IMG/VR virus record: IMGVR_UViG_3300027674_000002
DNA: 45,465 nucleotides
Strand: one strand, 5' to 3'
Source of the DNA: a virus
Under the pieces are notes generated by a model. It searched no databases and was not told the DNA's origin. It saw only the letters and a program-made list of their open reading frames with translations. Position numbers and translations under genes: made by a program. Below, piece after piece: positions 2,741-34,770 of this stretch. Each line of letters opens with the position of its first letter. The stretch's first letter is position 1.

Positions 2741-2988
2741 GCGATCCTCAGGGCCCTGCGCTTATTCGGCATGGCCTTTTTTTCTTCCTTGAGATAGCGC
2801 TTTCGCAGCGCGCGATATCGTTTCACCTTGCCGCTCCAGTCATCTCTGTTTTCGCGGTCCAAGCGCGTATCGTCGGCTCTTCTCGGCGGGAGAGTGGAAT
2901 CGATCATGGATTCCAGACTTTCGATTGCCTCGGCGAACGCGTCGATCAGGTCGGCGCGCTCGCCGTTCGTCAAAGTGTTTTGGTTCAT
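2737..2988 (-). CDS. hypothetical charged protein (83 aa)
   Basis: MNQNTLTNGERADLIDAFAEAIESLESMID... ATGA overlap with the integrase stop. Confidence 0.5.
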   Translation of the reverse strand: MNQNTLTNGERADLIDAFAEAIESLESMIDSTLPPRRADDTRLDRENRDDWSGKVKRYRALRKRYLKEEKKAMPNKRRALRIA

Positions 2989-4088
2989 GCGATCCTCGCG
3001 ATCTTCCCGCGCCGCGGTGCAGGCGCGGCCGGCGCTACCAGTTTCTCGATCGCGGCCTTGCCGTGTTCGGGCGAAAGATGCGCGTAGCGCATCGTGGTGA
3101 CGATCGAAGCGTGTCCGAGGAATTGCTGCACGGTGCGCAGGTCCACCCCGGCCATCACCAATCGGGATGCGAAGGTGTGCCGCAGGTCGTGCCAGCGGAA
3201 ATGGATCACTCCGGCCTTCGCAAGGATTTTCTGAAAGCGATCGTTGCGCCGGTCGAACGAGGATTCCGAGCGGCGGCAGACGTAGCGCGAGCCGCGGGAT
3301 TGCTCGTAAAGTTTTTCGAGCGCCAGTCGCGCCGCCGAATTGATGGGGATGAAGCGCCGCCCGGTCTTCCCTTCCCTCGGCACGGTCAGGATGCCGCGCT
3401 CGAGGTCGATCAAATCCCAGGTCAGGTGGAACTGCTCGCCGAGGCGCAGGCCGGTGTGGAGCGCCAGGTCCATCTCCGCTTCTAGCTCGGGATTCCAACC
3501 ACGCATTTTTTCGCGGATGGCGGATTCTTCATCGGCCGCGAGGTAGCGGATGATCCCGGGATGCGGGGCGAAGGCCTGGGTGGCGGCAACGGGATTTCTC
3601 GCGACGAAGCCGTTCTTGATGCCGTGGTCGAAGATGCTGTTCATCGTCCAGCGGTAGGCGTTCATGGCCGAATCGCCGAGCTCGCCGGTGACGGTCTTGC
3701 GCCCGGTGTTTTTCCTGGGGCGCGGCGAAGGCGTGCGCAGCGCGCGCAGCGCTTCATTGATCTTCGCCGTGCCGATCGCCGCCGCCGGCAGCGCGCCGAT
3801 GAGCGGCAGGACGCGGCGGAGCCGGGAACGTATGCCGCCGAGCGTTCGCTTCCGCAGATGCCCTTCCTTGTCGGCCAGCATTTTTTCCGCGAGCTCCGCG
3901 AAGGTCACGCGCCGCTCGCGCTGCGGCGCAACGTAGCGGCCTTCGCGCACTTCGCGCTTTTTGTTGACGTAGGCTTCGATGGCGACCGCGCGCCGCCCGA
4001 CGTGTTCCCGGTGGCGGCGGCCGTCGGCGTCGGCGTAGCAGATGAACCAGTCGTTCGAGCCTTTGACCTTTTCGAACACACCCCTCAT
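2985..4088 (-). CDS. int: tyrosine recombinase / phage integrase (367 aa)
   Basis: Catalytic signature ..TGLRLGE.., WHDLRHTFASRLV, LGHASIVTTMRYAHL (R..HxxR..Y). N-terminal SAM-like arm domain. Leader GGGAAAGGAAACGAT before the ATG. Confidence 0.95.
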   Translation of the reverse strand: MRGVFEKVKGSNDWFICYADADGRRHREHVGRRAVAIEAYVNKKREVREGRYVAPQRERRVTFAELAEKMLADKEGHLRKRTLGGIRSRLRRVLPLIGALPAAAIGTAKINEALRALRTPSPRPRKNTGRKTVTGELGDSAMNAYRWTMNSIFDHGIKNGFVARNPVAATQAFAPHPGIIRYLAADEESAIREKMRGWNPELEAEMDLALHTGLRLGEQFHLTWDLIDLERGILTVPREGKTGRRFIPINSAARLALEKLYEQSRGSRYVCRRSESSFDRRNDRFQKILAKAGVIHFRWHDLRHTFASRLVMAGVDLRTVQQFLGHASIVTTMRYAHLSPEHGKAAIEKLVAPAAPAPRRGKIARIA

Positions 4089-4889: not shown

Positions 4890-5069
4890 ATGCCCGAAGC
4901 AAAAAAGAAAGCCGCCCGCGAAACAAAATCCCACCAGGTATCGATCCGGCTGAGCGCCGAGGCTTACCGGAAGCTCAGGGAGCTGGCCGAGAAGGAAGAT
5001 CGCAAGCCCGCGTATATCCTCCGCCGCGCTGTGCTCGGCGGCCTGGGGCTCGATTCGAAAGCGGCCTAG
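4890..5069 (+). CDS. ribbon-helix-helix protein (59 aa), Cro-like position
   Basis: Hand-translated: MPEAKKKAARETKSHQVSIRLSAEAYRKLRELAEKEDRKPAYILRRAVLGGLGLDSKAA. AAAGGAG Shine-Dalgarno at 4876..4882. Confidence 0.7.
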   Translation: MPEAKKKAARETKSHQVSIRLSAEAYRKLRELAEKEDRKPAYILRRAVLGGLGLDSKAA

Positions 5070-5070
5070 T

Positions 5071-5322
5071 ATGGACTCCCCGAAAATTCTCTACGTCCGC
5101 GTGGAGCGAAGGGCCCTCTTCCCGCCGCAGTTCCAGGTCTCGGACAAGCTTGAGGATTTCAAGCAGTCCGGGCCGGTGGCGACCTACCGCCTGGAACGCG
5201 TCAACCATCTGAGCGTCGAGCGAAATTTATCGAAGGCAGCGATCGGCGAGCCGGGTGCAGCGAGCCCCGCGCCTTCGAACTCACCGGCGGCGGCGAAGCG
5301 GCCGACGAAAAAGGGGAGATGA
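5071..5322 (+). CDS. hypothetical protein (83 aa)
   Basis: ORF track. Starts 1 nt after the previous stop. Confidence 0.5.
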   Translation: MDSPKILYVRVERRALFPPQFQVSDKLEDFKQSGPVATYRLERVNHLSVERNLSKAAIGEPGAASPAPSNSPAAAKRPTKKGR

Positions 5323-5323
5323 G

Positions 5324-5536
5324 ATGGACCGCCTGCTCTATTCCCGCGCGGAAGCCGCCGCACGTCTTTCGCTCTCCATCCGGGCCGTCGACAACCTGAT
5401 CTCGCGCAACCTGCTGGCCTCGCGCAGGATCGGCGCCAAGCGCCTGATCCCCCACGCCGCGCTGGTGGCCTTCGCGCAAAAAAATCACCCGTCGCCCAAC
5501 CTCCCGAAGAAGAAGACCGCGCTCGAGGCCTCGTGA
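5324..5536 (+). CDS. excisionase-family / MerR-like HTH DNA-binding protein (70 aa)
   Basis: MDRLLYSRAEAAARLSLSIRAVDNLISRNLLASRRIGAKRLIPHAALVAF matches the HTH_17/Xis-type pattern. GGGGAG Shine-Dalgarno. Confidence 0.7.
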   Translation: MDRLLYSRAEAAARLSLSIRAVDNLISRNLLASRRIGAKRLIPHAALVAFAQKNHPSPNLPKKKTALEAS

Positions 5537-6144
5537 TGAACGCACAGCAATTGCATCGATTCTTGAAATCCCTCGGCGCATGCGCCGAAGCGGTCGAATG
5601 GTCGAAGGATAAATCCCTGGCCGAAGCATGGTCGAGCTGCGAGCGCGCGGACTGGATGCTCTGGCTGCTCGGGAAGCGGATCGGGGAAAAAGGCTGGCCC
5701 GATCGCAAGCAAATCGTCCTGCTGGCATGTTTGTGCGCGGAGACCGCGCTGAAATTCGTTCCCGCCGGCGAGGACCGTCCGCGCAAAGCAATTGAAACCG
5801 CGCGCGCATGGTGCGAAGGCAAAGCCACGCTCGCGGAAGTGCGCTCCGCCGCCGCCTACGCCGCCGCCGACGCCGCCGCCTACGCCGCCGCCGACGCCGC
5901 CGCCTACGCCGCCGCCGCCTACGCCGCCGCCTACGCCGCCGCCGCCTACGCCGCCGCCGACGCCGCCGCCTACGCCGCCGCCTACGCCGCCGCCGACGCC
6001 GCCGCCTACGCCGCCGCCTACGCCGCCGCCTACGCCGCCGCCGCCGCTCGGCGAGGCGCTCTTAAGGACATGGCCGAAATCATTCGCCAGGCGATTCCGT
6101 CGCTTTCACTGGCGACCGCGAAGCGGTCGACCGAGGCCTCGTGA
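5536..6144 (+). CDS. protein with a helical N-domain and a long Ala-Tyr/Ala-Asp repeat tract (202 aa)
   Basis: ORF track (ATG at 5536 overlaps the previous TGA). About 65 residues of AAAY/AAAD/AAY units. Confidence 0.65.
   Translation: MNAQQLHRFLKSLGACAEAVEWSKDKSLAEAWSSCERADWMLWLLGKRIGEKGWPDRKQIVLLACLCAETALKFVPAGEDRPRKAIETARAWCEGKATLAEVRSAAAYAAADAAAYAAADAAAYAAAAYAAAYAAAAYAAADAAAYAAAYAAADAAAYAAAYAAAYAAAAARRGALKDMAEIIRQAIPSLSLATAKRSTEAS
5848..6048 (+). repeat. about 200-bp coding microsatellite-like tract (GCCGCCGCCTAC / GCCGCCGCCGAC / GCCGCCTAC units)
   Basis: Direct reading of 5848..6048. All three plus-strand frames stay open across it. Confidence 0.9.
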
Positions 6145-6359
6145 TGGATGGCATGAGCGAGGTTCAACGGTTCGTCTTCCATGGCGATCAGAAAATTCCC
6201 GTCGTCGTGCATCCCTCCCTGGAGCCGTGGCAGTGGAAGTACATCAACGGAAACCTTTTCGTCGGCAAGGGAATGGACATCGATCAGTTGCTTTTCAAGC
6301 TGAACTGCACGCCGTATGACTCCTGGTTTCTGCGGTCGATCAAGGTGGAGGCGCCGTGA
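6144..6359 (+). CDS. hypothetical protein (71 aa)
   Basis: ORF track. GTGATG junction with the previous stop. Confidence 0.5.
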   Translation: MDGMSEVQRFVFHGDQKIPVVVHPSLEPWQWKYINGNLFVGKGMDIDQLLFKLNCTPYDSWFLRSIKVEAP

Positions 6360-6826
6360 TGAAATTCCTGCACGAAGACGAAGCGACGTGGATCACCTTC
6401 ACGAAAATCAGGGCCAAGAAGAACGCCGACGACAAGCGCATCGCGAAGATGGAGTTTGCCCTGCAGCTCGACGGCGTCAACACGAAGAAGATGCCGGCAT
6501 TCGTCGCGGACGCCTGGGCGTCGATGCGCAACGTGAACAGCGCGATCGTGCTCGAAAAAATCGACCGCGCCATCGAAAGCCAGAACCTCTTTTTCCACGC
6601 CCATCCGGACGACAAAGCGGTGCGGCATGAGATGGAAGAAGTCGACCTGTTCGACCTGCGGCTGGAGAAAGACAGGGACAAAAAAATCTGGCTCTTCTTC
6701 CACGTCGTGCAGTACGTCGATGTCGAGCTGTGGAAATGGATCGGCGCGCATTTCGGGCGAGAGATCGCCGCGCGCTTCGAGGAATGCCAGGGCGAGCTGA
6801 AGCTGGCGAAAGCCGCGGGTGACTGA
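6359..6826 (+). CDS. hypothetical protein (155 aa), balanced globular composition
   Basis: ORF track. GTGATG junction. No motif recognised. Confidence 0.65.
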   Translation: MKFLHEDEATWITFTKIRAKKNADDKRIAKMEFALQLDGVNTKKMPAFVADAWASMRNVNSAIVLEKIDRAIESQNLFFHAHPDDKAVRHEMEEVDLFDLRLEKDRDKKIWLFFHVVQYVDVELWKWIGAHFGREIAARFEECQGELKLAKAAGD

Positions 6827-7026
6827 TGCCGCCACCGCTCAAAACCGTGTCCGTCGTCGCGCATGCTTTCGATTGTCTGCCCGGACACATCCAGATCAGC
6901 GGCCGCGGCGAAGGCAAGCAGCTGCGGAGCGCAATGTTCCGTGCCGTCTCCCAGGTCCTCCGCGATCCCCGGCTTCGCTGGAAACATGTGAACGACTTCA
7001 AGATGCAAATCGTCGTGATGCGGTGA
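6826..7026 (+). CDS. hypothetical protein (66 aa)
   Basis: ORF track. TGATG junction. Confidence 0.45.
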   Translation: MPPPLKTVSVVAHAFDCLPGHIQISGRGEGKQLRSAMFRAVSQVLRDPRLRWKHVNDFKMQIVVMR

Positions 7027-7046
7027 TCGTCTTCCTTAAGGTCGAG

Positions 7047-7181
7047 ATGGAGGCGCGGTGCACGGGATGCGGCGCGATCGGGCCCGTGGAGCTCTCGCGC
7101 CTGCTGTGCGCCTGGTGCTTCGCCCAATGGATCGAATACTGCAAGTGGCTCCGGAGAAGGCAATGCGTCCCCGCGATCTAG
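7047..7181 (+). CDS. possible small Cys-rich protein (44 aa)
   Basis: MEARCTGCGAIGPVELSRLLCAWCFAQWIEYCKWL... Internal ATG of track ORF 6819..7181. Overlaps the next gene by 19 nt. Confidence 0.3.
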   Translation: MEARCTGCGAIGPVELSRLLCAWCFAQWIEYCKWLRRRQCVPAI

Positions 7182-7702
7182 CTCCCATCGAAGTTCTCGC
7201 CGAGCGGAAACCCCACGGCACGCGCCTGCGCTATCTCGGCGGATGCAAATGCGTTCCCTGCCGCGCTGCCGCTTCGCGTTATGAAACCGGCCGCGCCAAA
7301 CTGCGCAAGATGGGATTGTGGAATGGAATCGTCGATGCGACGCGCGCGCGCCGCAGATTGTTTTGGTTATCGAGGCGCGGCATCGGCCGCTATTCCATAG
7401 CGCGAGCCACCGGGATCTCCGCGACGGTGATCTGCAAAATCCGGAGCGGCGAACGCCGTCAATGTCGAGCGATGACGGAGAAAGCGATTTTGGAGCTCGG
7501 CGGCAATTCACCGCCGCAAAGCATGCTCGTTCCCGCCGGCAGGACCTGGGCGCGGATCCGCTGGCTGCTCGCGCAGGGATTCACGAAGGGGGGAATCGCG
7601 CAGCGCCTGGGGTCGAGGACGCCGGCGTTGCAGCTCCGCAAGGACTTCGTGATTCTCCGGACCGCGAAAAAAGTCGAAGCGCTCTGGCGGTCATTCCAAT
7701 GA
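7163..7702 (+). CDS. phage DNA-binding protein with an HGT..Y..GC.C..C motif and HTH (179 aa)
   Basis: HGTRLRYLGGCKCVPCRAA, then IGRYSIARATGISATVICKIRSG. GGAGAAGG Shine-Dalgarno before ATG 7163. Confidence 0.65.
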   Translation: MRPRDLAPIEVLAERKPHGTRLRYLGGCKCVPCRAAASRYETGRAKLRKMGLWNGIVDATRARRRLFWLSRRGIGRYSIARATGISATVICKIRSGERRQCRAMTEKAILELGGNSPPQSMLVPAGRTWARIRWLLAQGFTKGGIAQRLGSRTPALQLRKDFVILRTAKKVEALWRSFQ

Positions 7703-7750
7703 TTTTCCACATTTCCTCCGCTCTTGTTGTTGTTGCTCTTAAGTTTTTCC

Positions 7751-7803
7751 GGAAAGAGAGGAGAGAAGAGGGGGGAATCTTAAGGGGGGAGAGGAGGGGA
7801 GAG
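7751..7803 (+). repeat. polypurine tract (27 + 22 nt, interrupted by TCTT), imperfect mirror repeat
   Basis: ggaaagagaggagagaagaggggggaa tctt aaggggggagaggaggggagag, read directly. Confidence 0.85.
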
Positions 7804-7860
7804 TCAAGTGGAATCGAGCAGCGGCCTGTGCATCCGTTCGGTTTTCGCGCGATTTCCCGC

Positions 7861-7901
7861 TCGCCCGGTGCTTTGCGGTGCGTCGCGGTGCAGCCGGGTG
7901 C
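7861..7901 (+). repeat. four direct repeats with exact 10-bp phasing (..SCGGTGC)
   Basis: GGTGC begins at 7867, 7877, 7887 and 7897. Confidence 0.7.
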
Positions 7902-7947
7902 GCTCGAAACAAAGAATCCACAGGCGGGCCTGTGAATCGCTTTGCAA

Positions 7948-7990
7948 AACCGCGCGAAGGCTCCCGGCAAGGGGCGCTTGGCGCGAATGG
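7948..7990 (+). repeat. structured hairpin repeat, copy E (the only plus-strand copy)
   Basis: AACCGCGCGAAGGCTCCCGGCAAGGGGCGCTTGGCGCGAATGG. Same architecture as the four minus-strand copies. Confidence 0.8.
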
Positions 7991-7996
7991 TGGGAA

Positions 7997-8263
7997 ATGA
8001 ACGGAAGCGGAGTCAGCAACAGAGAACGGATCAGCAGCGCGGTGCGCGGCGAACTAAAGCCCTGCGCGCGGTGCGGGAACCCGCGATGGTTCCATCTGCT
8101 ATCGCCATTCGCGCGGCGCGCGGAAGACTGGCGGGATGACGGCCACTCCTTCGATGCCGGCGGCCGCGCGCCGCGGGCGCAGCTGAAACTGGTTTTTATT
8201 CGGAAAGATGGAAGGGAGAAAGACAATGTCGATTCGAATCATGCGAAGGCCGCCCACCGATGA
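7997..8263 (+). CDS. hypothetical protein (88 aa)
   Basis: Internal ATG of track ORF 7808..8263. High GC3 in the first 60 codons. Sits 11 nt after hairpin copy E, as for copies A and C. Confidence 0.4.
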   Translation: MNGSGVSNRERISSAVRGELKPCARCGNPRWFHLLSPFARRAEDWRDDGHSFDAGGRAPRAQLKLVFIRKDGREKDNVDSNHAKAAHR

Positions 8264-8462
8264 TGAGCTGACAGCCTGGAGAGGATTGCATCAAGGCGGC
8301 CGCGGAGCGACGCGAACGCTTTTCGGGAAACACGCGCTGAAGCGCGTGCACGTGCACCTGGGGATAGAGGCGTTTCTCGCGAAGCTGCGCAGGGACAAGG
8401 AATGGGAGTCCGCCTGCGAGCTGGCGCGGGCGACGATCAAGAGGCTTCCGCCGGCGGCGTGA
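8226..8462 (+). CDS. hypothetical protein (78 aa)
   Basis: MSIRIMRRPPTDDELTAW... GGGAGAAAG Shine-Dalgarno. Overlaps the previous call by 38 nt in another frame. Confidence 0.45.
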   Translation: MSIRIMRRPPTDDELTAWRGLHQGGRGATRTLFGKHALKRVHVHLGIEAFLAKLRRDKEWESACELARATIKRLPPAA

Positions 8463-8688
8463 CGCGGGTCTTCTTTTCTCGCTCGCGCCTGTCGACTCCT
8501 TCCCTGATCCGCGCTAGCCGGCGCCTGGCATGATCCAATTCCTCCGACAGGCGCTTCAGGTATGTTTTCGGAACGATGTGCGCGGAGTGTTCGAGCGCTT
8601 CGATGTAGTGCGGCGTGCAGACGCGCAATCCGAGGAGCTCGTGCGGCGCCGCGGCTTCGCAGCCCGGAACGTAACAACTAATTTTCAC
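8437..8688 (-). CDS. hypothetical Cys/His-containing protein (83 aa), last gene of the long minus-strand operon
   Basis: ORF track. YVPGCEAAAPHELLGLRVCTPHY. Convergent with the plus-strand operon. Confidence 0.5.
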   Translation of the reverse strand: MKISCYVPGCEAAAPHELLGLRVCTPHYIEALEHSAHIVPKTYLKRLSEELDHARRRLARIREGVDRREREKKTRVTPPAEAS

Positions 8689-9391
8689 GTTCGGTCAGGG
8701 AGAGCCGGCGCTTCGCCGCTTCGAGCGCGTGGAAGCGCGGCGCGGGAAGTTTGTCGTACAACTTGCTGGCGCGCAGGACCATCAGCGCAAGAAAATCGCG
8801 GTCCTCGGGTTTCGATGGCAGATTATGCTCGAGGCGCACGACAATCTCCTCGAACCTGCCGAGGTCCAGACCGACGGCGCCGGCGAACGCGCGCACGCCC
8901 ATGTCCGTGTCCTCGTAAGCCGGGAAAGTGACCGGGCTGACGTCCATCAGGTCCACGTCGATGAGGTCGCGAATCGTTTCGCCGTCCTGCATGTGCCAGT
9001 TGTCGGTGACGGTGCGGAAGCGGAAGCTGCCCTGGCTGATGTCGCCGCGGTCGATGGAGGTCATCAGGTCGCGCGCCGCCTGGGTATCCGGCGCGTCGAT
9101 CTCCATGCGCAGGCCGGTGGAATCTTCCTTCAGACGGAGCGTGCCGGCTTTGTTGCGGCCGAGCACGATGTCGGGGTTGTGATTGAGGAGCGCGCGGACG
9201 TCCGCGCCCTCGGCGAGCGTGCGCTTGAACGCGCCCGGCATGATCTGCTCTCGCATGCCCCACATGCGCCGCGACAATTTGTTGAACTTCGCGGGGTAGC
9301 CCACGATCATCGTGGGTTTGCCGTCGCGCTTCTCCACGCGAAACTCCGCCGTGAAATCCTTCGCGTTCAAAAACCTCTGTTCGACTTCCAT
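8678..9391 (-). CDS. HK97-family prohead serine protease (237 aa)
   Basis: GYPAKFNKLS..EQIMPGAFKRTL..LLNHNPDIVLGR..LRLKEDSTGL..DTQAARDL..IDRGDISQGSFRF matches the S78/U35 pattern. AGGAG Shine-Dalgarno. Confidence 0.9.
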   Translation of the reverse strand: MEVEQRFLNAKDFTAEFRVEKRDGKPTMIVGYPAKFNKLSRRMWGMREQIMPGAFKRTLAEGADVRALLNHNPDIVLGRNKAGTLRLKEDSTGLRMEIDAPDTQAARDLMTSIDRGDISQGSFRFRTVTDNWHMQDGETIRDLIDVDLMDVSPVTFPAYEDTDMGVRAFAGAVGLDLGRFEEIVVRLEHNLPSKPEDRDFLALMVLRASKLYDKLPAPRFHALEAAKRRLSLTEREN

Positions 9392-9524: not shown

Positions 9525-9956
9525 TTACTTCTCGGGCCACACGATTCCGGTGATCGCCAGGATCCGGTCCGCTTCGCCCGATGCCGGCGGCCCGCAGTTC
9601 AACATCTGTTCCTGCACGTTGAAGGGCTGAAAATCGCCATTCGCTGCTTTTTTTAGCATGGGCGTGACTTCGAGAAACGGAAGGCAATGGATCAGCTCGC
9701 CGGTGGTCAGGACGCGGGATCCGCTCTTCGATTGCACGCCGATCGCGACATGGATCGTCGGCAGGAAAATGGCGATGCGCTCTCCCGTAGGCAAGGTGAG
9801 CAGGTCCTGAAAGAGGAACTGCTGCGGCCGACCATTCGCGCCAAGCTGCCCTTGCCGGGACACGTTGGCGCGTTCATCCGGCGGCGCCGGAAGCGCGGCC
9901 AGCACCAAAGCTCCCAGGAACAGCATCGCGAATAAAATGCTCCAGCGCTTAAGCAT
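9525..9956 (-). CDS. predicted secreted protein (143 aa) with hairpin repeat copy B embedded in frame
   Basis: Signal-like MLKRWSILFAMLFLGALVLAALPAPP. Internal ATG of track ORF 9525..10250. Confidence 0.45.
   Translation of the reverse strand: MLKRWSILFAMLFLGALVLAALPAPPDERANVSRQGQLGANGRPQQFLFQDLLTLPTGERIAIFLPTIHVAIGVQSKSGSRVLTTGELIHCLPFLEVTPMLKKAANGDFQPFNVQEQMLNCGPPASGEADRILAITGIVWPEK
9833..9874 (-). repeat. structured hairpin repeat, copy B
   Basis: Sense strand AACGCGCCAACGTGTCCCGGCAAGGGCAGCTTGGCGCGAATG. Confidence 0.85.
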
Positions 9957-9969
9957 GGTCCACCGCTCC

Positions 9970-10011
9970 CATTCGCGCGAAGCTGCCCTTGCCGGGACAC
10001 GTTCGCGCGTT
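9970..10011 (-). repeat. structured hairpin repeat, copy A
   Basis: Sense strand AACGCGCGAACGTGTCCCGGCAAGGGCAGCTTCGCGCGAATG. Starts at the portal stop codon. Confidence 0.85.
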
Positions 10012-11950
10012 AAACATTGTCGACCGCGACAATTTGGCATTCGCAGCGCGCGCCTCTCGGGGGATGGTTGGCCGCCGCGGCGGGTTCGATGAACCGCGTG
10101 GCGATCGACATGCACTCGCTGCTGCAGCCGGTTTCGGGAACGATCCAGGCCAGCGTCTTCGCGCCGGCGGCTTTGTAGAGATGCAGCGCGAAAGCGTTCG
10201 AGGCGCGCATGGCTTCCTCGTGCGCGCGGTCGGTGACGCCGTTGGCCCACACGGCCATTTTGCCGATGTGGTTGACCAGCGCCTCTTTCACGTAGCGGTG
10301 CGCGAAATTGTCCGCGTAGCTCGCGATGAATTTGTCGCGGTCGGCGATCGCGGCGGTGCGGCCTTCCATGCGGAGGAGGGTCGAGACGGATTCCTCGATG
10401 CAGGTGAGCACCGGCAGGACGGCGTCGCGCACGTAGGCGTCGTGGTCGCGGAAGAAATTGTCGGCGTCGGCGCCCTCGCGCGCGAGCGCGGCAATCTCTT
10501 TCCTGGCCAAGCGTTCCCCGACGCTGCCCAGCAGTGGGATGAAGGCGCGGGTAACCTGCCGGCGGCGCTCGGCGAGCTCCTGGGCATGCCTCTTTTTGGC
10601 CTTGGGGTCTCCCGTGGCGGGCGGAGGATTCTTTGGCGTCCCAGATGGCGAAGGACTCCCATCCGGGCCCATATTGGCCGCCGGCGCGGGCGCCGGGGGG
10701 TTTATGGCCCTGTCGATGGGTTGCTGGGTGACTGGGATGAAATAGACCTTGCCCTGGCCGTCCGGCAGGGGGTTCTGGTTGCGCCGCTTGCGGATCTCGT
10801 CGGTGTTCGTCCAGCCGTCCATCCAGGCGATATTCTCGGCTTCGTTCTGGCTCTTCAGGTCGCCCAGTTTTTGGGCCGTGAAATCGTGCTCGGCGAAATA
10901 AGTTTTCTGATCTTCCGGGTTCAGCAGTTTGCGATGGACTTCCGCCTCGATGCCGTCGCCCCAGGGCTCCACGGCGTCGCGGACGAATTCGATCGATTGG
11001 TGCTCGATGTTGGAGAATGTCCCGTGCGTGAGCTCCGCCAGCTTGTGCAGCGGGACGTTGAACATCCGCGCGATCTCGGATAGCTGGAAGACGCGCGTCA
11101 GCAGGTATTGCGCATCCTCGTTCGACATCCCGATCTTTTCGATCTTCATGCCCTCTTCGAGCACGGCGACGCGGTGCGCCTGGTCGCCTCCGCGGTGCGA
11201 CTCTTCCCAGGATTCCTTGAGGCGCTTCGCCGATTCGGCTTTCATTTTGGCGGGATGGGTGAGCACGATCCCGGGCGTCGCATCGTTGCCGAAGAAGCGC
11301 GCGCCGTAATCCGTCGCCGCCATCGAAAGCCCCATGCTCTCGCGGTGCAGCGCGACGGGAGAAAGTCCGCGCAGCCCATCGTAGCTATAGCCCATCACAT
11401 GCAGGACCTCGTAGGGCTGCAGGATGACTTCAGGGCCGGCGCTCGAGCGCGCCACGTAAATCAGTTTCCCGGTTCCTTTTCCATCCGGGCCGATCATGCG
11501 GCGGGGAAAGGTGCGGTCCGGGCGGAGCGGCCAGAGCGCCACGACCTGGCCGCCATTGTCGCGCTCGATCTCCGCGTATCCGTTGCCCCACAGCAGCAAA
11601 TGCCCCATGAAGGTTTCCCAAAAAGTTTTCTTGGTCATCTCCGGGTTCGGCGGCCAGCGCAGCAGCGGATAGAGCGGATGGTCGGTCGCTTCGCGGGTTT
11701 CGCCGTTCGTCTGCGTTTGAAACAGACGAAATGGCGAGGTGGAGATCGCGCGGGAGATCAGATTGACGGCGGCCCACACGGCGGAGAGCTGCATCGCCGT
11801 GCGCTCCGTCATGGTCTGGCCGGAAGCGGTCGGATGCCCGCCGGCATATTCCACCAGCCAGCGATCGGGCTCGGAGAGATTCGAGCGCAGCTCGAGGCGG
11901 AACGGGTTCAGCTCCGCGCGAAGTCCGAATCTTCCGGCCGTCAGAATCAT
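10010..11950 (-). CDS. HK97-family portal protein with a MuF/SPP1 gp7-like C-terminal extension (646 aa)
   Basis: The N-terminal ~410 aa are portal-like (MQLSAVWAAVNLISRAIST.., GYSYDGLRGLSPV). The C-terminal ~230 aa end in ETGCSSECMS...NHPPRGARCECQIV, resembling the MuF C..C...PP.H..CRC signature. Confidence 0.88.
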   Translation of the reverse strand: MILTAGRFGLRAELNPFRLELRSNLSEPDRWLVEYAGGHPTASGQTMTERTAMQLSAVWAAVNLISRAISTSPFRLFQTQTNGETREATDHPLYPLLRWPPNPEMTKKTFWETFMGHLLLWGNGYAEIERDNGGQVVALWPLRPDRTFPRRMIGPDGKGTGKLIYVARSSAGPEVILQPYEVLHVMGYSYDGLRGLSPVALHRESMGLSMAATDYGARFFGNDATPGIVLTHPAKMKAESAKRLKESWEESHRGGDQAHRVAVLEEGMKIEKIGMSNEDAQYLLTRVFQLSEIARMFNVPLHKLAELTHGTFSNIEHQSIEFVRDAVEPWGDGIEAEVHRKLLNPEDQKTYFAEHDFTAQKLGDLKSQNEAENIAWMDGWTNTDEIRKRRNQNPLPDGQGKVYFIPVTQQPIDRAINPPAPAPAANMGPDGSPSPSGTPKNPPPATGDPKAKKRHAQELAERRRQVTRAFIPLLGSVGERLARKEIAALAREGADADNFFRDHDAYVRDAVLPVLTCIEESVSTLLRMEGRTAAIADRDKFIASYADNFAHRYVKEALVNHIGKMAVWANGVTDRAHEEAMRASNAFALHLYKAAGAKTLAWIVPETGCSSECMSIATRFIEPAAAANHPPRGARCECQIVAVDNV

Positions 11951-12237
11951 AGAAGTCCTTTGGGCACCGCCGCGAAGAACATCCTGATCAGCACCGCCGC
12001 GGTGGCGATGCCCGCGCCGAGCATGTAGAAGCCAAAGTCGCGCAGGTTTTCCATGAACGTCTGGCCCTCGACGACCGAATCAAAAATAAATTCCTTCAGC
12101 GATGCGAAAACGAAAATCGCCGTCAGCCCGATCCATCCGTGGCCGGGCCACAACGCTTCCATGCCGAAGACGGACGTCGCACCGGCCAGCGCGTGCGCGA
12201 ATTGCGCGATCAGGTCCGGACTCGGCAGCCACTTCAT
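11947..12237 (-). CDS. membrane protein (96 aa) between TerL and portal
   Basis: ORF track. Hydrophobic segments GWIGLTAIFVFASL and FGFYMLGAGIATAAVLIRMFF. ATGA overlaps at both ends. Confidence 0.55.
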   Translation of the reverse strand: MKWLPSPDLIAQFAHALAGATSVFGMEALWPGHGWIGLTAIFVFASLKEFIFDSVVEGQTFMENLRDFGFYMLGAGIATAAVLIRMFFAAVPKGLL

Positions 12238-13883
12238 ATCGTGATCACTCCGCGCGAATCGTAAACCGAAGCGCCGCTATCAAGCTGCACGCTGGCGCGG
12301 CCGAGCGCCATGATCAGCGCCACGATGCCGTCGATGCGCTTGCGGCTGGCGGCCTTGTCGGGCTTCCAGTTTCCCGCTGGGTCTGTTTTCACCGTCACGT
12401 TCGAAGCCATCCAATCGAGCACCGGGTTAGCGCCGTGGTGCAGCGTGCCCTTCAGCGCCGTGTCCATCAGCTGCTTGGTGGGGCCCATCATCGAAGCGAA
12501 CCCCTGGCCGAAAGGCACCATCGTGAAACCTTCGCCGGTCAGCTGCGTGATGATCTGCGCCGCGTTCCAGCGGTCCACGGCAATCTCTTTGATCTCGTAC
12601 CGCTCGCCGTCTCGCGCGATCGTCCGGCGGATGACGTCGTAGTCGATGTAGTCGCCTTCGGTGAGAGTGATGAATCCCTGCTCGGCCCAGAGCTCGTAAG
12701 GGACGCCATCTAGCTCCTGCTTCTTCCTCAGGTTCTCGCGCGGCAGCCAGAGCCGCAGGTGCGCGAAAAAATGAAACTCGCCCGTCGCTTCATCCAGCAC
12801 CGGCCAAACCTTCGCGAACGCCGCGAGGTCCTGCACCGTCGCGAGATCGAGGCCTCCGAAACAAATCTGGCCGTCGAGCGGCTTGAGCGGGAAGGGCGCG
12901 CGGCACGCGTCCCAGACTTCCTTCGGCATCCACAATTCCATCTGACGCGTCCAGATGTTCAGGTGCAGCCGCTTAAAAGTGTTCTGGTACGCCGGCGTCT
13001 TCTTCGCGATCTCGCATTCGGCGCGGAGATATTCAACCTTCACGCTGATGCCGAAATTCGGATTGGCCTTCCGCATCGTCTCTTCGGAAGTCCAATCGTC
13101 TTTCTTCTCGTCGGCCTCGAAAATCACCGCGAGCAGCGTCGGCACGTCGATGGTTCCGTCGCGCACTCTCCTGGCCAGCTCGTGCAGCTCGAAGCAGATG
13201 GTCAACTCGTCGTAGCCGGCCGTCGTGGACGCCCAGGTCATCGGCTGGCGCCGCGCGACCGTGGAAGTTTTCGTGATGTCCCATAATTTGCGATCGGCCT
13301 GTTCGTGGACCTCGTCCCAGATCAGGCCGCTGGCGTTCAGCCCCGATTTTTTCGGATGTCCGGATAGCACGCGCCAAATCGCCCCGGCTTTCTCGACGTA
13401 GATCGAATTCTTGAAGACTTCGCAGCGGCTCGAGAGGTCCAGCGAGGCCTTCACCATCGCAGCGGCGATGTTGAAAATGATTCCCGCCTGCTCTTTCTCC
13501 GTCGCCGCGGAGAAGACTTTCGCGCCGGGCTCCTGGTCCGCGAAGGTCAGATAGAGGCCGACGCCGGCGCCGAGCGTCGATTTGCCGTTCTTGCGCGGCA
13601 CGGCCACCCACACCAGGCGGTATTTGCGCGAACCGTCCGAGATGTTTTTCCAGCCGAAGGCGTCGCGCAGCGTCTGATATTGCCACTGCTCCGGGATCAG
13701 CGGCTTCCCGGCCCATTCGCCCTCGACATGCGTGCAATAGAGCTTGAAAAAATCGAGCACGCGCGTCGCCGCGTCCGGATCGAACCAATAAAGCTTCGCG
13801 TCGTAGCGGGAGAGGTCCTCTTCGGGAAGAAACCACGCGTCGATGAGCGCGTGCGGGTGACCGCGATAGTCTCGCCGCTTCAT
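12234..13883 (-). CDS. terL: terminase large subunit (549 aa)
   Basis: Terminase_1-type N-terminus (..YCTHVEGEWAGKPL..WQ...), Walker A-like VAVPRKNGKST, nuclease half with IAVDRWNA. Confidence 0.95.
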   Translation of the reverse strand: MKRRDYRGHPHALIDAWFLPEEDLSRYDAKLYWFDPDAATRVLDFFKLYCTHVEGEWAGKPLIPEQWQYQTLRDAFGWKNISDGSRKYRLVWVAVPRKNGKSTLGAGVGLYLTFADQEPGAKVFSAATEKEQAGIIFNIAAAMVKASLDLSSRCEVFKNSIYVEKAGAIWRVLSGHPKKSGLNASGLIWDEVHEQADRKLWDITKTSTVARRQPMTWASTTAGYDELTICFELHELARRVRDGTIDVPTLLAVIFEADEKKDDWTSEETMRKANPNFGISVKVEYLRAECEIAKKTPAYQNTFKRLHLNIWTRQMELWMPKEVWDACRAPFPLKPLDGQICFGGLDLATVQDLAAFAKVWPVLDEATGEFHFFAHLRLWLPRENLRKKQELDGVPYELWAEQGFITLTEGDYIDYDVIRRTIARDGERYEIKEIAVDRWNAAQIITQLTGEGFTMVPFGQGFASMMGPTKQLMDTALKGTLHHGANPVLDWMASNVTVKTDPAGNWKPDKAASRKRIDGIVALIMALGRASVQLDSGASVYDSRGVITI

Positions 13884-15750: not shown

Positions 15751-16245
15751 TTAGCCGAACATGCGGTCGGCGGCGCGATCGGCCGGATTCTTTTCCGGCT
15801 CGACGTGGATGCGCGTGCGCGCCGCGGGCGAGAGTCCGAGCTCGCCGGCCAGCTTGCACATCATCAGCAAACATTTCTGCGCGATGGCCACTTGTGGCCA
15901 TTGCTGAATGAATTTGATTTTTCCCTGCTCGCCTTTTTTCGTTGCGGGCTCGCGCATGACGAACGTCAGGCCGTGCGCTTCGAGGAACTCCTCGGCGTCG
16001 CGCCAGCGCGTGAAGCTCGAGCAGTAGGCCGCGAACAGGTCAACGTCCGCGACGGAAAGCCAGGGGAGGTCCGGACGCAGGCGCTTCCAGACCTCCTTGG
16101 CTTTGTCGGTCAACCAGGCGGGAGGGGGCAACACGGCGGCCGCTTTGGGTGGAAGCGGTTCGCCTGGGTGCAGTTTTAATTTTCCGGGATTCCCTTGCAG
16201 GATCCGGAGGGCGGTAGGTTTTGGAGAAGGGCCGCGTTGTCCCAC
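15751..16245 (-). CDS. terS: terminase small subunit, P27 family
   Basis: PKPTALRILQGNPGK..WLTDKAKEVWKRL..DVDLFAAYCSSFTRWRDAEE..LAGELGLSPAARTRI matches the P27 small-terminase pattern. Start uncertain: GTG 16245 chosen, and the track ORF starts at TTG 16281. Confidence 0.85.
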   Translation of the reverse strand: MGQRGPSPKPTALRILQGNPGKLKLHPGEPLPPKAAAVLPPPAWLTDKAKEVWKRLRPDLPWLSVADVDLFAAYCSSFTRWRDAEEFLEAHGLTFVMREPATKKGEQGKIKFIQQWPQVAIAQKCLLMMCKLAGELGLSPAARTRIHVEPEKNPADRAADRMFG

Positions 16246-16320
16246 GCAGTCGAGTAGGCGAAAAAGCGCCGCACGGAGCAATAGAACGCCGTGCCAGTGT
16301 TCTAAGGGATGTGTCGCAAG

Positions 16321-26173: not shown

Positions 26174-26181
26174 GAATTCTC

Positions 26182-26224
26182 CATTCGCGCCAAGCTGCCC
26201 TTACCGGGACACGTTGGCGCGGTT
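26182..26224 (-). repeat. structured hairpin repeat, copy C
   Basis: Sense strand AACCGCGCCAACGTGTCCCGGTAAGGGCAGCTTGGCGCGAATG. Confidence 0.85.
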
Positions 26225-26226
26225 CT

Positions 26227-29200
26227 TTACCTCAATCCGCCGCGCCCGCCCCCGGCGCCCGGAGGGTCTCCGCTCACGCCTCCTCCGCCGCCGGCCGTGG
26301 TGATCTTTCCGAAATAAATCCGCCCGTTGTTCGCGTAGACGTCCGATTCGGTGAGCGTGGCCACATAAGTCACCGCGCCGCCCGCATACGTCGGGTCATC
26401 CGCATAGACGAAATAGGTTCCGTAAGCGCCCGGAGTCACCGAGCCCGAGTTGTAGCCGACCTGGCCGTCGCCGTACTGCATCGTGGACGCCGCGACGTTG
26501 ATCGTGTGCGTCGTGCCGGATTGCGAGAGCGCGGCGCCGCCTGTGGAGTGTCCGCTCGTGTTGATGGGCGTCAGGTCGAACGCCGTGGCCTGGTAGACAA
26601 GCATCAGGTCGTCGAAGCGCAGGTCGGCGCAGCTGATGCCGCCGGATCCCGCAGGTGTGGAGACCGGAGAGCCCGAGGTATTCTGGATGAACCCGGCGCA
26701 TTGCACGCGAGCGTACGCGGCGGTCGCATCGGTGATGGTTACGGCCGCTTGTTGAACGCGAAAAGAGGCCGACTGGCTATTCACGAGATCCGCGACCAGC
26801 TCGTTGATCACCGTATCCGCCGCATTGAAAATAAGCAGGCCGACTCGTTGAATGATGGATATCCCGGCGGGAATTCCCGCGGCAAACGCCCATTTCGTGT
26901 ATCCGTGAATTCGAATGATGTCGCCCTGCCGAATCGGAATTTTTCTCGATTGCACGGCGGCCTTGTACTGCGGGCTGGTGGCTCCGATGGAAATGGAAGG
27001 GTTGACGCGCAGATTGATCCCTCCCGATCCAGTTCTCGCGTATCCTCCCGCGTCGTCGTAGATCACGCCCCAAAGGCCCGGCACGGTATTGTCTTTGTTC
27101 CTGACGGTCCAGCCGTCGCTCGCCGAGGCGCCAATCGCCAAATCGACGTCCACCGCGCTTCCGCCGGTGTTGAATTCGAAGCCCGGGTTTGGGCACATAT
27201 TTTTGCCGTTGCTGCCTGGGCGTCCATAGGTGATTCCATCGCCGATGCTATCGATCGTCACGGCCGTGCCCGTCGCGGTGACGCTGCCCGTGACGGCCGC
27301 GCTGTTCACGCCGGCATGGTTCTGCGCCCACATCTGGATGTCGTATTGAATCCCGTCGAGGACTGGGCCGATCTGCGCGACGGTGACGCCGCCCGCGAGT
27401 TTCCCGATGTCGGTCCACAGGGAATCCGTGTGCTTTTTGTACTGCACGATGATGTGCCCGCCCGCGATAACGAACTGGTCCGCCGGCGCGGTCCAGGCCA
27501 GAGCGATGAAATTCGTACGGATGCCGTCGGCGGTGCGAACGATCTCAGCCGCGCTCACCATCACGGACGTCGGCGGCTGGCAGACCAGGTTGCTCGGCAG
27601 GACCGTCGTCGGCGCCGCGTTGATGGCGACCTCGTCGGCCGTCGTCCAGTCGTAGATCGTGGAATCGGCTTCGCGCAGCGTCATGTCCACGCCGACGGCC
27701 ATCGCGCTCTGGCTGTCCGCGCCGTAAACCAGCGTGCACGCGGTGACCTCGAAAGTTTTATTCACCCACCCGAAGCGCGGATGCGAAAACTGGATGACGT
27801 CGAGCGCCTGCGCCTGGTAGGCGGTCAGCTTGAACTGCGCCTGCACGGTGATTTGGTGGCGCACGCGGCGCAGCGCGATCTTCGAAAGCCGCTGCGCGGT
27901 CGCGCCCGACGTCGTGAACGGCAATTCCACGTCCAGCCACAGCGGCTCATTGTTATCTTCGAGCAGATAAGCCGGCGACTGGAACGGCGGGTAATCGGAG
28001 ATCTGCCAGTTGTTCAGCGGCGAAATGTAGGTGCCCTTCACGCCGTTGTAGAGGTCGCGATGCGTCAGCCGCGTCTGCACGGTGAAGGCGGCGCGCAAAT
28101 CGGAATCGCTGAGGCTGATGGTCGGCGCGCGCCAGATCCCCGGGAAAATTCCCCACAGGCCCGCGACATAGAGCACCGAACCGGCCATGGCGGAATTCAT
28201 CCTGCCGACCACGGCCGCGGGCGCTTCGCTCGTGTCGAAGCTCCCGTTGATGGTGAAGCGCGGCTCGGTTCCTCCGGCGAGGATGTTCACGGCCTCGTCG
28301 GAAGTATTCGCCGCGGCGATGAGCTGCACGCTGTCCACGTCGCTCGAGTAAAACTCCAGCTCGTTGACGAACCCCGCCTCGGTGATCGTCGCGTCCGCTT
28401 TCACTCTCCAGTAGCGGTGCGCTCCGTTGGGCGCGAGCTCCACGTCGTTCCATCCGATGATGTCCGGCAGGAAAGCCGCCGAGGCCGTCGTCCAGGTGGA
28501 ATTGTTGTCGGAAAATTGAATGTCATAGGTCTGCACTTGCCCCGTGACGCTCAGAAACATCCGGCAGCGGCGGAATTCCGCGGCGATGCCGGCGCCGAGG
28601 TCGAGCGAAACGGTCGAGCCGCTGTTCGTGGTGTTGTTGCTCCATCCATTTGTCGTGGTGTCGCCGTCAATGAGCTGCGCGGCGTTGAAATTCGAAAACC
28701 CGGAATTCGTGAACATCCCCGCGGCCAGCGGATATTTCGTCTGCGCCACGAGCCCGAACGCCGCATTGTTCAGATAGTCCGCGATGCACAGCGCCGCGTT
28801 CGCGCTGTAGGCGATCGTTCCCGTGCGCGGGTCATAGACTTTGCGGCCCTGCACGTCGAAAGTGATGTTCGGCACGCCGTTCGGAAATTTGTTGACGTCC
28901 CAGGTGAGCGCCACGTAAGCGCCAGCGCATCCGCGCTGGCGGTGCGCCGCGGTCCAGAAGGCCGGCGCGGCCGCGATCAGGCCGGGGAAGCTGGCCTGCC
29001 CGCGCGTGCCGAGATTGAATTCCGCGTGCACGAAGCCCGCGAAATTTCCCGTGGCGTTGCCGCTGCCGTCGAGCGGCACGGCCACGCCGTCGAAATACAT
29101 CGTGTTGATGGCGAAGAATTCATGGCCGGAAAGAGAAATCACGATGTGGAGTTTTTCGTTGTTCGTTCCCGTGGTGTGCAGGAAGGTGATGATGCCGCCC

Positions 29201-29448
29201 AGGCGCCCCACGCCGTATTGCACGCGGCGCGGAGCGACAGCTTGCCGGGAAGTCACGGTGCGGCTCGCGAGCTGGCTGGTCAGCGAGGAGCTCGTCGGCT
29301 TGTTGCTGTTGGCGAACATCTTGCTGACTTCGCCGAGCAGCAGCGATGCGCCGACAGAGAGAAGCACCGGGGCGAGGAAGGCCGCAAACGCGGCGCTGGC
29401 GCCGAGGGCTTCGAGAACGAACACGATGGCTGCGATGACCGCCGGCAT
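26227..29448 (-). CDS. host-specificity / central tail fibre protein (gpJ- or RcGTA g15-like, 1073 aa)
   Basis: N-terminus VQYGVGRLGGIITFLHT..LHIVISLSGHE..GAYVALTW..FPNGVPNITFDVQGRKVYDPR (Phage-tail_3 pattern). Discoidin-like, FN3-like and CBM-like segments. Confidence 0.9.
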   Translation of the reverse strand: MPAVIAAIVFVLEALGASAAFAAFLAPVLLSVGASLLLGEVSKMFANSNKPTSSSLTSQLASRTVTSRQAVAPRRVQYGVGRLGGIITFLHTTGTNNEKLHIVISLSGHEFFAINTMYFDGVAVPLDGSGNATGNFAGFVHAEFNLGTRGQASFPGLIAAAPAFWTAAHRQRGCAGAYVALTWDVNKFPNGVPNITFDVQGRKVYDPRTGTIAYSANAALCIADYLNNAAFGLVAQTKYPLAAGMFTNSGFSNFNAAQLIDGDTTTNGWSNNTTNSGSTVSLDLGAGIAAEFRRCRMFLSVTGQVQTYDIQFSDNNSTWTTASAAFLPDIIGWNDVELAPNGAHRYWRVKADATITEAGFVNELEFYSSDVDSVQLIAAANTSDEAVNILAGGTEPRFTINGSFDTSEAPAAVVGRMNSAMAGSVLYVAGLWGIFPGIWRAPTISLSDSDLRAAFTVQTRLTHRDLYNGVKGTYISPLNNWQISDYPPFQSPAYLLEDNNEPLWLDVELPFTTSGATAQRLSKIALRRVRHQITVQAQFKLTAYQAQALDVIQFSHPRFGWVNKTFEVTACTLVYGADSQSAMAVGVDMTLREADSTIYDWTTADEVAINAAPTTVLPSNLVCQPPTSVMVSAAEIVRTADGIRTNFIALAWTAPADQFVIAGGHIIVQYKKHTDSLWTDIGKLAGGVTVAQIGPVLDGIQYDIQMWAQNHAGVNSAAVTGSVTATGTAVTIDSIGDGITYGRPGSNGKNMCPNPGFEFNTGGSAVDVDLAIGASASDGWTVRNKDNTVPGLWGVIYDDAGGYARTGSGGINLRVNPSISIGATSPQYKAAVQSRKIPIRQGDIIRIHGYTKWAFAAGIPAGISIIQRVGLLIFNAADTVINELVADLVNSQSASFRVQQAAVTITDATAAYARVQCAGFIQNTSGSPVSTPAGSGGISCADLRFDDLMLVYQATAFDLTPINTSGHSTGGAALSQSGTTHTINVAASTMQYGDGQVGYNSGSVTPGAYGTYFVYADDPTYAGGAVTYVATLTESDVYANNGRIYFGKITTAGGGGGVSGDPPGAGGGRGGLR

Positions 29449-34686: not shown

Positions 34687-34728
34687 GTTCGTTTCCCCCA
34701 TTAAAATATTTCGAGCTTGAAATCGGCC

Positions 34729-34770
34729 CATTCGCGCCAAGCTGCCCTTACCGGGGCACGTTGGCGCGTT
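34729..34770 (-). repeat. structured hairpin repeat, copy D
   Basis: Sense strand AACGCGCCAACGTGCCCCGGTAAGGGCAGCTTGGCGCGAATG. Confidence 0.85.

Follow-up and report, generated by a model that had tools for sequence, protein, structure and literature searches.

Repetitive extragenic palindromes (REP), miniature inverted-repeat transposable elements (MITE), Rickettsia palindromic elements (RPE) and mycobacterial interspersed repetitive units (MIRU) are familiar from bacterial chromosomes, and have seldom been described as phage residents common to unrelated phages. The unit analysed here is a short GC-rich hairpin repeat with five copies in the window (the whole 45,465-nt stretch of IMG/VR virus record IMGVR_UViG_3300027674_000002), and the copy of main concern, copy E, lies on the plus strand at 7948-7990. 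Copy E was best explained, with a rough probability of 0.6, as one insertion of a REP-, MITE- or RPE-like intercistronic palindrome that is mobile, or rapidly gained and lost, and that resides mainly in temperate soil phages. Palindromic insertion repeats of small size, in-frame cases included, are a kind already known; new in the present unit are its very short length, its mainly phage-borne occurrence, its presence in unrelated soil phages and its strong strand bias.

The REP, BIME and SMAG (Stenotrophomonas) elements resemble the present unit in being GC-rich imperfect palindromes of 21-65 nt, single or in small clusters, intercistronic or 3' in position, and transcribed as hairpins. Hairpins of REP and SMAG elements can stabilise upstream mRNA (PMC3184786). 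However, a bacterial chromosome contains hundreds of REP copies, as opposed to 5-13 copies per phage genome and one match in 185,579 species genomes for the present unit. REPs also carry a 5' GTAG-type tetranucleotide and have a link to RAYT proteins, whereas the present unit had no conserved GTAG, and no Y1, HUH or RAYT protein was found among the open reading frames (ORFs) of the window that were scanned. A further difference is that the soil-phage unit also occurred inside genes. Occurrence within genes is shared with RPE, which are palindromes inserted in frame in unrelated genes, adding a short peptide and leaving the gene intact (PMC10969869); RPE are, in contrast, about 100-150 bp long, chromosomal and found in an obligate intracellular bacterium, whereas the present unit was of 43-62 nt, mostly intergenic and phage-borne.

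Both MIRU and the present unit are transcribed intra-operon units of the 40-100-bp class, the ends of which overlap stop and start codons; in both, some sites are filled and others empty, and tandem copies occur (PMC3184786). Conversely, MIRUs are chromosomal, number 40-50 copies, form variable tandem arrays and have, where a site is filled, direct repeats of a tetranucleotide, while only dimers and no consistent direct repeats were observed here. The MITEs (Correia, ERIC, Chunjie) share terminal inverted repeats, a variable interior, a non-autonomous nature, filled and empty sites, and intragenic in-frame cases (PMC10969869), but they usually measure 100-400 bp, their target-site duplications are defined and their parent insertion sequence can be recognised, as compared to about 45 nt, inconsistent duplication and no known parent element for the present unit.

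Repeats borne by phages themselves are also comparable. Start-associated sequences (SAS) and extended start-associated sequences (ESAS) of Cluster K mycobacteriophages are, like the present unit, phage-borne, orientation-biased, composed of an inverted repeat plus a Shine-Dalgarno-like tail near an ATG (in many, not all, copies of the present unit), and absent or rare in the host (PMC3203893). In ESAS, the inverted repeat lies upstream of a Shine-Dalgarno-containing repeat, in one orientation and 3-7 bp from starts (PMC3203893). The ESAS sites follow a gene family and non-structural genes only, whereas the sites of the present unit were non-orthologous, in structural operons, intragenic, and in unrelated phages. 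The PeSL of T4-type phages are repeated intergenic stem-loop cassettes linked, as here, to sites where close relatives differ by insertion, deletion or replacement (PMC2839356); they differ in their length of about 100 bp and in containing both a strong early promoter of the sigma-70 type and a functional terminator, whereas neither a promoter-like site nor a U tract in the sense orientation was found for the present unit.

Copy E and the Repeat Family

Copy E read AACCGCGCGAAGGCTCCCGGCAAGGGGCGCTTGGCGCGAATGG. Its outer stem paired CGCGCGAA (7951-7958) with TTGGCGCG (7978-7985), with a single G.G mismatch (G7956 opposite G7980), and its inner stem paired GCTCC (7960-7964) with GGGGC (7971-7975), one U.G wobble included; the loop was CGGCAA (7965-7970) and the tail AATGG (7986-7990). 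A preliminary description of the window had presented copy E as a fifth, inverted copy on the plus strand, with one G.G mismatch in the outer stem and two inner pairs swapped without loss of pairing (GCTCC/GGGGC as compared to TGTCC/GGGCA), and the sequence, the alignment and a covariance model all agreed with it; at 34728 the inner stem was TGCCC/GGGCA. The 35-mer had 0 expected matches in 100 shuffles. The covariance model gave copy E 61.4 bits (E = 5.6e-15), copy E being itself among the 24 sequences from which the model was built, and gave the other four window copies 71-76.5 bits, so that copy E scored lowest of the five; the search of the window returned exactly five copies. Copy E kept 12 of the 13 pairs, and G7956.G7980 was the sole non-standard pair in the 311 cells of the 24 copies. 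The predicted folding energy (-23.1 kcal/mol; z = -1.17) was by itself undistinctive in a GC-rich genome.

Units were 43-47 nt long with a GC content of 64-72% and a 36-nt hairpin, and a long variant reached about 62 nt. The termini of the unit (AACGCGCCAACGTGT ... GCAGCTTGGCGCGAATGG) were conserved and the apex was variable, and the terminal inverted repeats CGCGCCAA / TTGGCGCG were kept in both short and long variants. Type 1 had an inner stem of TGTCC, a loop of CGGYAA and GGGCA, type 2, to which copy E belongs, had GCTCC ... GGGGC and a 5' side one base shorter, and the long type kept the termini and had the apex replaced by CCCGCCCTTYTWTAAGGGAACGACA. Long variants were located at L002 5224-5285, L005 226-287, L004 758-819, L006 4611-4667 and 6580-6644, and L013 5195-5257 (L numbers designate collected loci), and none was present in the window; in them a 25-nt CCCGCCCTT...AAGGGAACGACA hairpin took the place of the apical stem-loop. 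Tandem dimers were found in two unrelated contigs (L014 and L006) with an identical junction, GCGCGAC|AGAAC. The 5' flank of the copies was R-R-A-A or T-R-A, with GTAG in one copy only. Units were typically placed at tight gene junctions, often with the upstream stop codon at their start and the downstream Shine-Dalgarno at their end. Many copies had an ATG 6-13 nt after GAATGG with a GGAG-type continuation, and others were 41 nt before the next start, intragenic or antisense.

Copies were collected by pattern scans of IMG/VR, of one genome per bacterial species and of metagenomes, followed by the covariance model. The family comprised 41 distinct copies in 12 contig groups; they came from the window, from a relative collinear with it, from further contigs of soil phages and from a single Terriglobales chromosome. 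The IMG/VR pattern scan returned one relative, IMGVR_UViG_3300031753_000301 (Ga0307477_10000374), which was collinear with the window at 70-82% nucleotide identity and carried 13 copies; its portal region was reached by protein look-ups. Scanning metagenomes yielded 16 loci from about 11 soil contigs, several of which carried phage genes (transglycosylase/endolysin, DnaB-like helicase, methyltransferase, phrog_2045) and had little or no similarity to the window. The covariance model located one copy each in L003 (the Terriglobales locus) and L019. No copies were present in the more distant relatives L025 and L027, which have the same order of portal, small gene and protease, and a portal-based search of IMG/VR returned only a distant 4.3-kb contig with 0 copies.

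The scan of 185,579 species genomes, in which an exact pattern match was needed, gave one match, in a metagenome-assembled Terriglobales genome, and the true host may be unsampled. This chromosomal copy was of the E subtype, 97.5% identical to copy E, and intergenic between ABC-permease and aminotransferase genes. With this one match, the sampled genomes do not carry the unit as a high-copy repeat of the host. The host of these phages was probably a member of the Acidobacteriota (Terriglobales). A different palindrome, GTTTGTACTT(G/A)CAAAC, flanked the chromosomal copy on both sides (L003 2100-2122 and 2320-2350), and more than one type of repeat may accumulate in that stretch between genes. 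Origin of the chromosomal copy as a CRISPR spacer or repeat was rejected, no adjacent repeats being found.

Occupancy of Sites in Collinear Genomes

None of the five sites of the window held an intact copy in the collinear relative (0/5), and all 13 copy sites of the relative were empty in the window. The four minus-sense copies of the window (Table 1; repeat family D9, forming with copy E the inverted pairs I2, I5, I6 and I11) and copy E were compared site by site. The site at 9832 was found in three states: full in the window, with the 5' half only, after a 30-nt in-frame deletion, in the relative, and empty in L024. The gene that contains it encodes a secreted-type protein, and four homologues (P0002-P0005) were without the insert. 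At 9969, the site was empty in the relative and in L024, where the portal stop overlapped the next start (ATGCGTAACCGCGCC); in the window it held the hairpin and a target duplication of about 15 nt, with the portal stop preserved and a new start created. The target had already contained AACCGCGCC, which is the unit's own 5' end.

The empty 26181 site of the relative read TGA|GGAGAAATCATG, so that the unit of the window sat exactly between the stop codon and the Shine-Dalgarno. At 34728 the relative had an unrelated palindrome (GCTAGCTTGCTAGC...); the copy of the window at this site was followed by ATG 34686, 41 nt past the GAATGG tail and 47 nt past the stem. As for copy E, the relative had no copy 5' of the orthologue of the ORF beginning at 7997, and had one at the 3' end of that gene instead. 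Target-site duplication, estimated as about 15 nt at 9969, was not readable at 26181, at L001 307, or at the small-ORF and integrase sites described next.

Insertions within genes were found in both genomes. The relative carried the unit as an in-frame insert of 42 nt (+14 codons), absent from the window, in a small conserved ORF, and as three in-frame inserts in its integrase (one internal and two in the C-terminal tail), the window integrase being without any. In-frame intragenic inserts spanned 39-42 nt. Freedom from stop codons in all six frames was rejected as an adaptation to insertion in coding sequence, 14-25% of shuffles being also stop-free. Translational bypassing, as in T4 gene 60 or the yeast mitochondrial byp elements, was unnecessary, as the intragenic copies examined were all read through in frame.

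As read from the aligned sequences, the unit has been gained, lost, half-deleted and dimerised between collinear genomes. The two genomes show it entering tight junctions and coding sequence without breakage (the integrase inserts, the duplicated portal stop/start and the half-deleted footprint). The preliminary description implied a fixed signal acting in the sense direction before particular genes, and that idea did not fit this comparison, since positions were unconserved and the 9832 copy was intragenic. The pair of genomes offers a natural system for operon-junction and protein-terminus remodelling, for the mobilisation of non-coding mini-palindromes, and for strand bias of insertion or retention. 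In annotation, the units give rise to long ORFs that are spurious and to unusual gene starts, and should be masked or modelled when genes are called in this phage group.

Base Pairing and Covariation

In the alignment of 24 copies, 99.7% of the cells were in standard pairs and 6 of the 13 pairs had changed on both sides; this pairing was matched by 0 of 500 shuffles, and no slid register came close. In a second alignment, fitted to the covariance model, 98.5% of the cells of 38 distinct copies were paired and 8 of the 13 pairs had changed on both sides. Outer position 6 occurred as C:G, G:C, A:U, G.U and U.G, the copy at 9969 having the compensated change to G:C, and a triple-compensated stem (CGCATGAA/TTCATGCG) was present in L021 and L024. 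The pair at column 18-29 was U.G in 22 of 24 copies. Wobbles were all G.U or U.G on the sense strand, and thus A.C on the other, which indicates that folding of the sense strand, as RNA or as single-stranded DNA, is what is preserved. These substitutions demonstrate, at the level of aligned copies, that selection has kept the base pairing of the sense-written strand.

In the pattern used to retrieve the metagenome copies, much of the loop, 3' stem and tail was prescribed, so that the lack of variation at these positions is in part a product of the search. Copies detected by the model and not by the pattern also had the conserved loop and tail, both unpaired. Conservation of the loop and tail hints at a specific recognition or function.

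Orientation Relative to Local Genes

Across the family, 35 copies were sense and 6 antisense to the local genes (n = 41; one-sided binomial p = 2.4e-6, copies within a contig not being fully independent). Strands of genes outside the window were taken from our own ORF calls based on third-codon-position GC, and were verified against family matches where such existed. In the window, the statement that orientation tracks transcription was accurate: the other four copies were on the minus strand among minus-strand genes (portal, tail-fibre and major-tail genes around them), copy E was within the only plus-strand block (4890..8462), and all five were sense to their local genes. Outside the window it stood as a strong bias and not as an absolute rule. 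The relative had three intact antisense copies (L001 307, 3752 and 10299), in short gaps of its minus-strand tail operon, and further antisense copies were found in L013 (one) and probably in L004 (two). Given the overall 35:6 bias, the inversion of copy E is part of a real tendency. The observation on copy E was correct and by itself modest; its value was as a lead to the evidence for mobility, with the orientation rule reduced to a bias.

Within the 8 nt that follow the stem, T occurred on average 1.3 times on the sense strand, as compared to 4.0 times on the antisense strand. The antisense-strand count was 3.2 in the six antisense-placed copies as compared to 4.2 in the sense-placed copies. 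This asymmetry, in small numbers of copies, would fit selection against orientations that terminate the operon's own transcript.

Origin of the Unit and Alternative Explanations

Conserved termini with a variable apex, filled and empty sites, in-frame inserts, a footprint, dimers, and occurrence in unrelated phages and a chromosome argue for an element of the REP, MITE, RPE or MIRU type over a fixed signal. On transcription, the unit would fold into an intercistronic hairpin of 13 bp. As a sense copy it lacks a U tract, so transcription would pass, and the hairpin could protect the 3' end of the upstream mRNA, by analogy with REP and SMAG elements; the GAATGG(AG) tail would abut or supply the ribosome-binding site of the downstream gene. 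In the antisense orientation, the T-richer tail after the hairpin could cause partial termination, and selection against antisense insertions would then result in the orientation bias. Movement might be due to a trans-acting enzyme on single-stranded DNA hairpins or to recombination at CGCGCC microhomology.

A bolder form of this explanation, which we hold only tentatively and rather doubt, is that the unit is a self-propagating phage-borne intercistronic cassette of about 45 nt whose single-stranded DNA hairpin is mobilised by a phage or host enzyme. Such a cassette would be harmless at junctions through its 5' T-R-A stop, its open frames and its 3' GAATGG(AG), which would seed a ribosome-binding site. 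It would move between phages that share a host lineage but are otherwise unrelated, and would reshape their operon junctions and the ends of their proteins; its strand bias would come from the strand exposed or folded in transcription or replication.

Several results weighed against an inserted or rapidly turned-over palindrome. No transposase, HUH/RAYT protein, HNH or homing endonuclease was found among the approximately 50 ORFs of the window that were scanned. A related autonomous insertion sequence with the same termini was not seen in the window or in the collected loci, insertion-sequence libraries not having been systematically searched. Target-site duplication was inconsistent (about 15 nt at one site and none readable at others), and no donor was traceable because the flanks of different copies shared nothing. 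At least one copy was positionally shared by the relative and L028, so not all copies are recent. The loop CGGYAA and the tail GAATGG were conserved beyond what a neutral palindrome needs, which is partly an effect of the search pattern. Antisense RNA folded at -20 to -27 kcal/mol as compared to -23 to -26 kcal/mol for sense RNA, so hairpin stability cannot explain the sense bias. The explanation of the bias by termination hangs on a small difference in T count (4.2 vs. 3.2), and the gene-strand calls outside the window rest on GC content, those of L004 and L013 being uncertain. Two candidate readings were rejected on these same results: a larger composite element with shared flanks, the flanks being unrelated, and a weaker antisense fold as the cause of the sense bias.

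A dedicated cis-regulatory RNA is a possible, although unlikely, explanation. The sense hairpin and its GAAUGG tail would be bound by an RNA-binding protein or RNase, of phage or host, as a processing or stabilising site, or would aid translation initiation of the next gene in the manner of SAS/ESAS. Such a function would account for the 35 sense vs. 6 antisense copies, for the usual place between an upstream stop and a downstream Shine-Dalgarno plus ATG, for covariation with wobbles valid on the sense strand only, and for the conservation of the unpaired loop and tail, also in model-found copies, and SAS/ESAS provide a precedent (PMC3203893). However, ESAS sites follow gene families, whereas the collinear genomes had no positional orthology of the unit. 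Copies within coding sequences, three of them in one integrase gene, the three intact antisense copies in the tail operon of the relative, the exchange of the whole apical loop in the long variant, the presence of the unit in unrelated phages and a chromosome, and the lack of an Rfam family match are all at odds with a dedicated regulatory RNA.

An improbable explanation is that the unit is a recombination substrate similar to PeSL, through which 45 nt of shared homology at gene junctions would let co-infecting phages swap modules, the repeat spreading in the process. Several copies adjoin or coincide with points at which the nucleotide homology of the two genomes, window and relative, breaks off (L001 307, at the 274/1079 break; L002 1194 and 2049, at edges of aligned segments), which agrees with it, but any insert between genes would be expected to have such breakpoints nearby. 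Copy E was inside a non-homologous stretch (7120-8049), and an 88-nt insert at L001 273-363 brought about 40 nt of extra non-repeat sequence. Occurrence of the unit in unrelated phages and the PeSL precedent (PMC2839356) are also in agreement. Unlike module exchange, however, the in-frame inserts in conserved genes consisted of the unit only, with both flanks well aligned; in addition, no promoter component was found, and the flanks of different copies shared nothing.

It is very improbable that the unit is a duplex DNA binding site (operator, stoperator-like or partition site) at which a dimeric phage protein, e.g., an RHH, HTH_17 or ParB-like protein, would recognise CGCGCCAA...TTGGCGCG. Genes for RHH, HTH_17 and ParB-like proteins were present, the 8-bp inverted termini were perfect, sequence conservation was high, and both orientations occurred in the relative. 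Nevertheless, compensatory Watson-Crick changes and strand-specific G.U wobbles point to single-strand folding and not to recognition of half-sites, a strong sense bias is unexpected for a symmetric operator, the unit was also present in phages without those proteins, and in-frame coding insertions would be unexplained.

That the unit is a common intrinsic terminator, or a GC-rich palindrome that arose by chance, is hardly credible, despite the GC-rich hairpin after stop codons and the unremarkable folding z-score of copy E, as the sense tail AAUGGNN has no U tract after the stem, a terminator scan of 7300-10200 flagged none of the three copies in it, and 41 near-identical copies with covariation over independent contigs exclude chance. 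An integron attC-like site was also set aside, as the R-box consensus RYYYAAC / GTTRRRY does not agree with the termini of the unit.

Surroundings of Copy E

Copy E was at the end of a non-coding gap of 294 nt (7703-7996) that follows a gene with a phrog_1590 match (Table 1). No sigma-70-like promoter was found in this gap. The hairpin directly 5' of copy E (Table 1) would stop antisense transcription into the plus-strand block, or else sits in the leader of the ORF starting at 7997. The gap also contained a long polypurine tract, GGAAAGAGAGGAGAGAAGAGGGGGGAATCTTAAGGGGGGAGAGGAGGGGAGAG (7745-7812, plus strand), which was missing from the relative, where the orthologue of that ORF directly followed the preceding gene.

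The ORF starting at 7997 was 54.7% identical to its counterpart in the relative over 53 aa and was stop-free in the plus frame only, the minus frames carrying stops; its conserved pattern was ELKPCA.CG.P.WFH...DWRDDGH.F. ATG 7997 had been proposed as a real start from the spacing between stem and ATG, and both points held: the spacing was 11 nt for copy E, 12 nt for 26181 (ATG 26173) and 17 nt for 9969 (ATG 9956), and ATG 7997 opened a gene conserved, in the plus frame only, in the nearest relative. The encoded protein had a conserved C-x2-C ... H ... H pattern (also in L002 7201-7500), which possibly constitutes a zinc-binding site. In the window a repeat copy adjoined this ORF on its 5' side, and in the relative a repeat copy adjoined the orthologue on its 3' side. 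ORF 8295..8453 (plus strand) was likewise a conserved stop-free frame against the relative.

Genome Layout

The window had a GC content of 62%. Its positions 1-99 and 45367-45465 were an exact direct repeat of 99 nt, from which the genome was taken as complete, of 45,366 nt, and circular or terminally redundant. From PHROG and Pfam matches (Table 1), the virus is classed as a temperate HK97-like siphovirus. Nearly all genes were on the minus strand, with the exception of the plus-strand regulatory block, which contained the RHH protein, the HTH_17 protein, the phrog_1590 protein, ORF 7997..8263 and a conserved ORF ending at 8462; a ParB-like gene was also encoded in the window. No close phage relative in GenBank was found by megablast of bases 1-25000, and no tRNA or tmRNA in the window. 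Rfam gave 0 matches at the gathering threshold over the whole window, and matches at chance level only (E > 2) around copy E.

Table 1. Positions of annotated genes, of the four minus-strand repeat copies and of the hairpin next to copy E in the window.
Feature	Position	Strand	Remarks
Integrase	2985..4088	-	PHROG/Pfam match
Upstream gene	7058..7702	+	phrog_1590 match, 1.4e-15
Separate hairpin, 10 bp, directly 5' of copy E	7915..7938	-	Terminator-like on minus strand, tail CTTTGTTT; outside repeat family
88-aa ORF	7997..8263	+	Conserved in relative; starts 6 nt past AATGG tail; no family match
S78 prohead protease	8678..9391	-	PHROG/Pfam match
Repeat copy	9832..9874	-	In frame inside conserved 143-aa gene 9525..9956 (-), reads RANVSRQGQLGANG
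Repeat copy	9969..10011	-	Begins on TAA stop of portal gene, then GGGAG and ATG 9956
Portal	10010..11950	-	PHROG/Pfam match
Large terminase	12234..13883	-	PHROG/Pfam match
Small terminase	15751..16281	-	PHROG/Pfam match
Repeat copy	26181..26223	-	3 nt after TAA of tail-fibre gene; GAATGG tail runs into Shine-Dalgarno GGAG of ATG 26173 gene
Tail fibre (1073 aa)	26227..29448	-	PHROG/Pfam match
Distal tail protein	30552..31640	-	PHROG/Pfam match
Tape measure	31637..33907	-	PHROG/Pfam match
Repeat copy	34728..34770	-	Directly after TAGTAA stop of major tail gene 34774..35406
Major tail	34774..35406	-	PHROG/Pfam match
Major capsid	43161..44489	-	PHROG/Pfam match

In HK97-like phages the genes of the prohead protease and the major capsid protein are normally adjacent. 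In the window they were separated, across the circular junction, by a lysogeny module (integrase and regulatory genes) of about 9.5 kb, and the part of this gene order from protease to integrase was also present in the collinear relative (L021).

Repeats of other kinds were also observed. ORF 5533..6144 (plus strand) contained, at 5796-6095, about 25 tandem units of 12 nt, sometimes 15 nt (GCCGCCGCCTAC / GCCGCCGCCGAC), and its product was an alanine-rich AAAY/AAAD repeat protein with a weak phrog_21347 match. Direct repeats with 63-92% identity and start-to-start distances of about 108-321 nt (mostly multiples of about 111) occupied 37857-38873 within ORF 37626..38984 (minus strand), so that its 452-aa protein, which had no family match, contains repeated domains. 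The major tail gene and its neighbour at 35484..35969 (minus strand) were paralogues of the major-tail type, 72-85% identical over stretches of more than 100 nt (repeat families D6, D10 and D20). The motif AAGGGAAAGGAAACG was located 3-5 nt before the ATG of five genes (1869, 19788, 20107, 20543 and 22371, minus sense; repeat family D13). It is separate from the hairpin repeat and is, from its letters and position, either an extended Shine-Dalgarno or a start-associated sequence.

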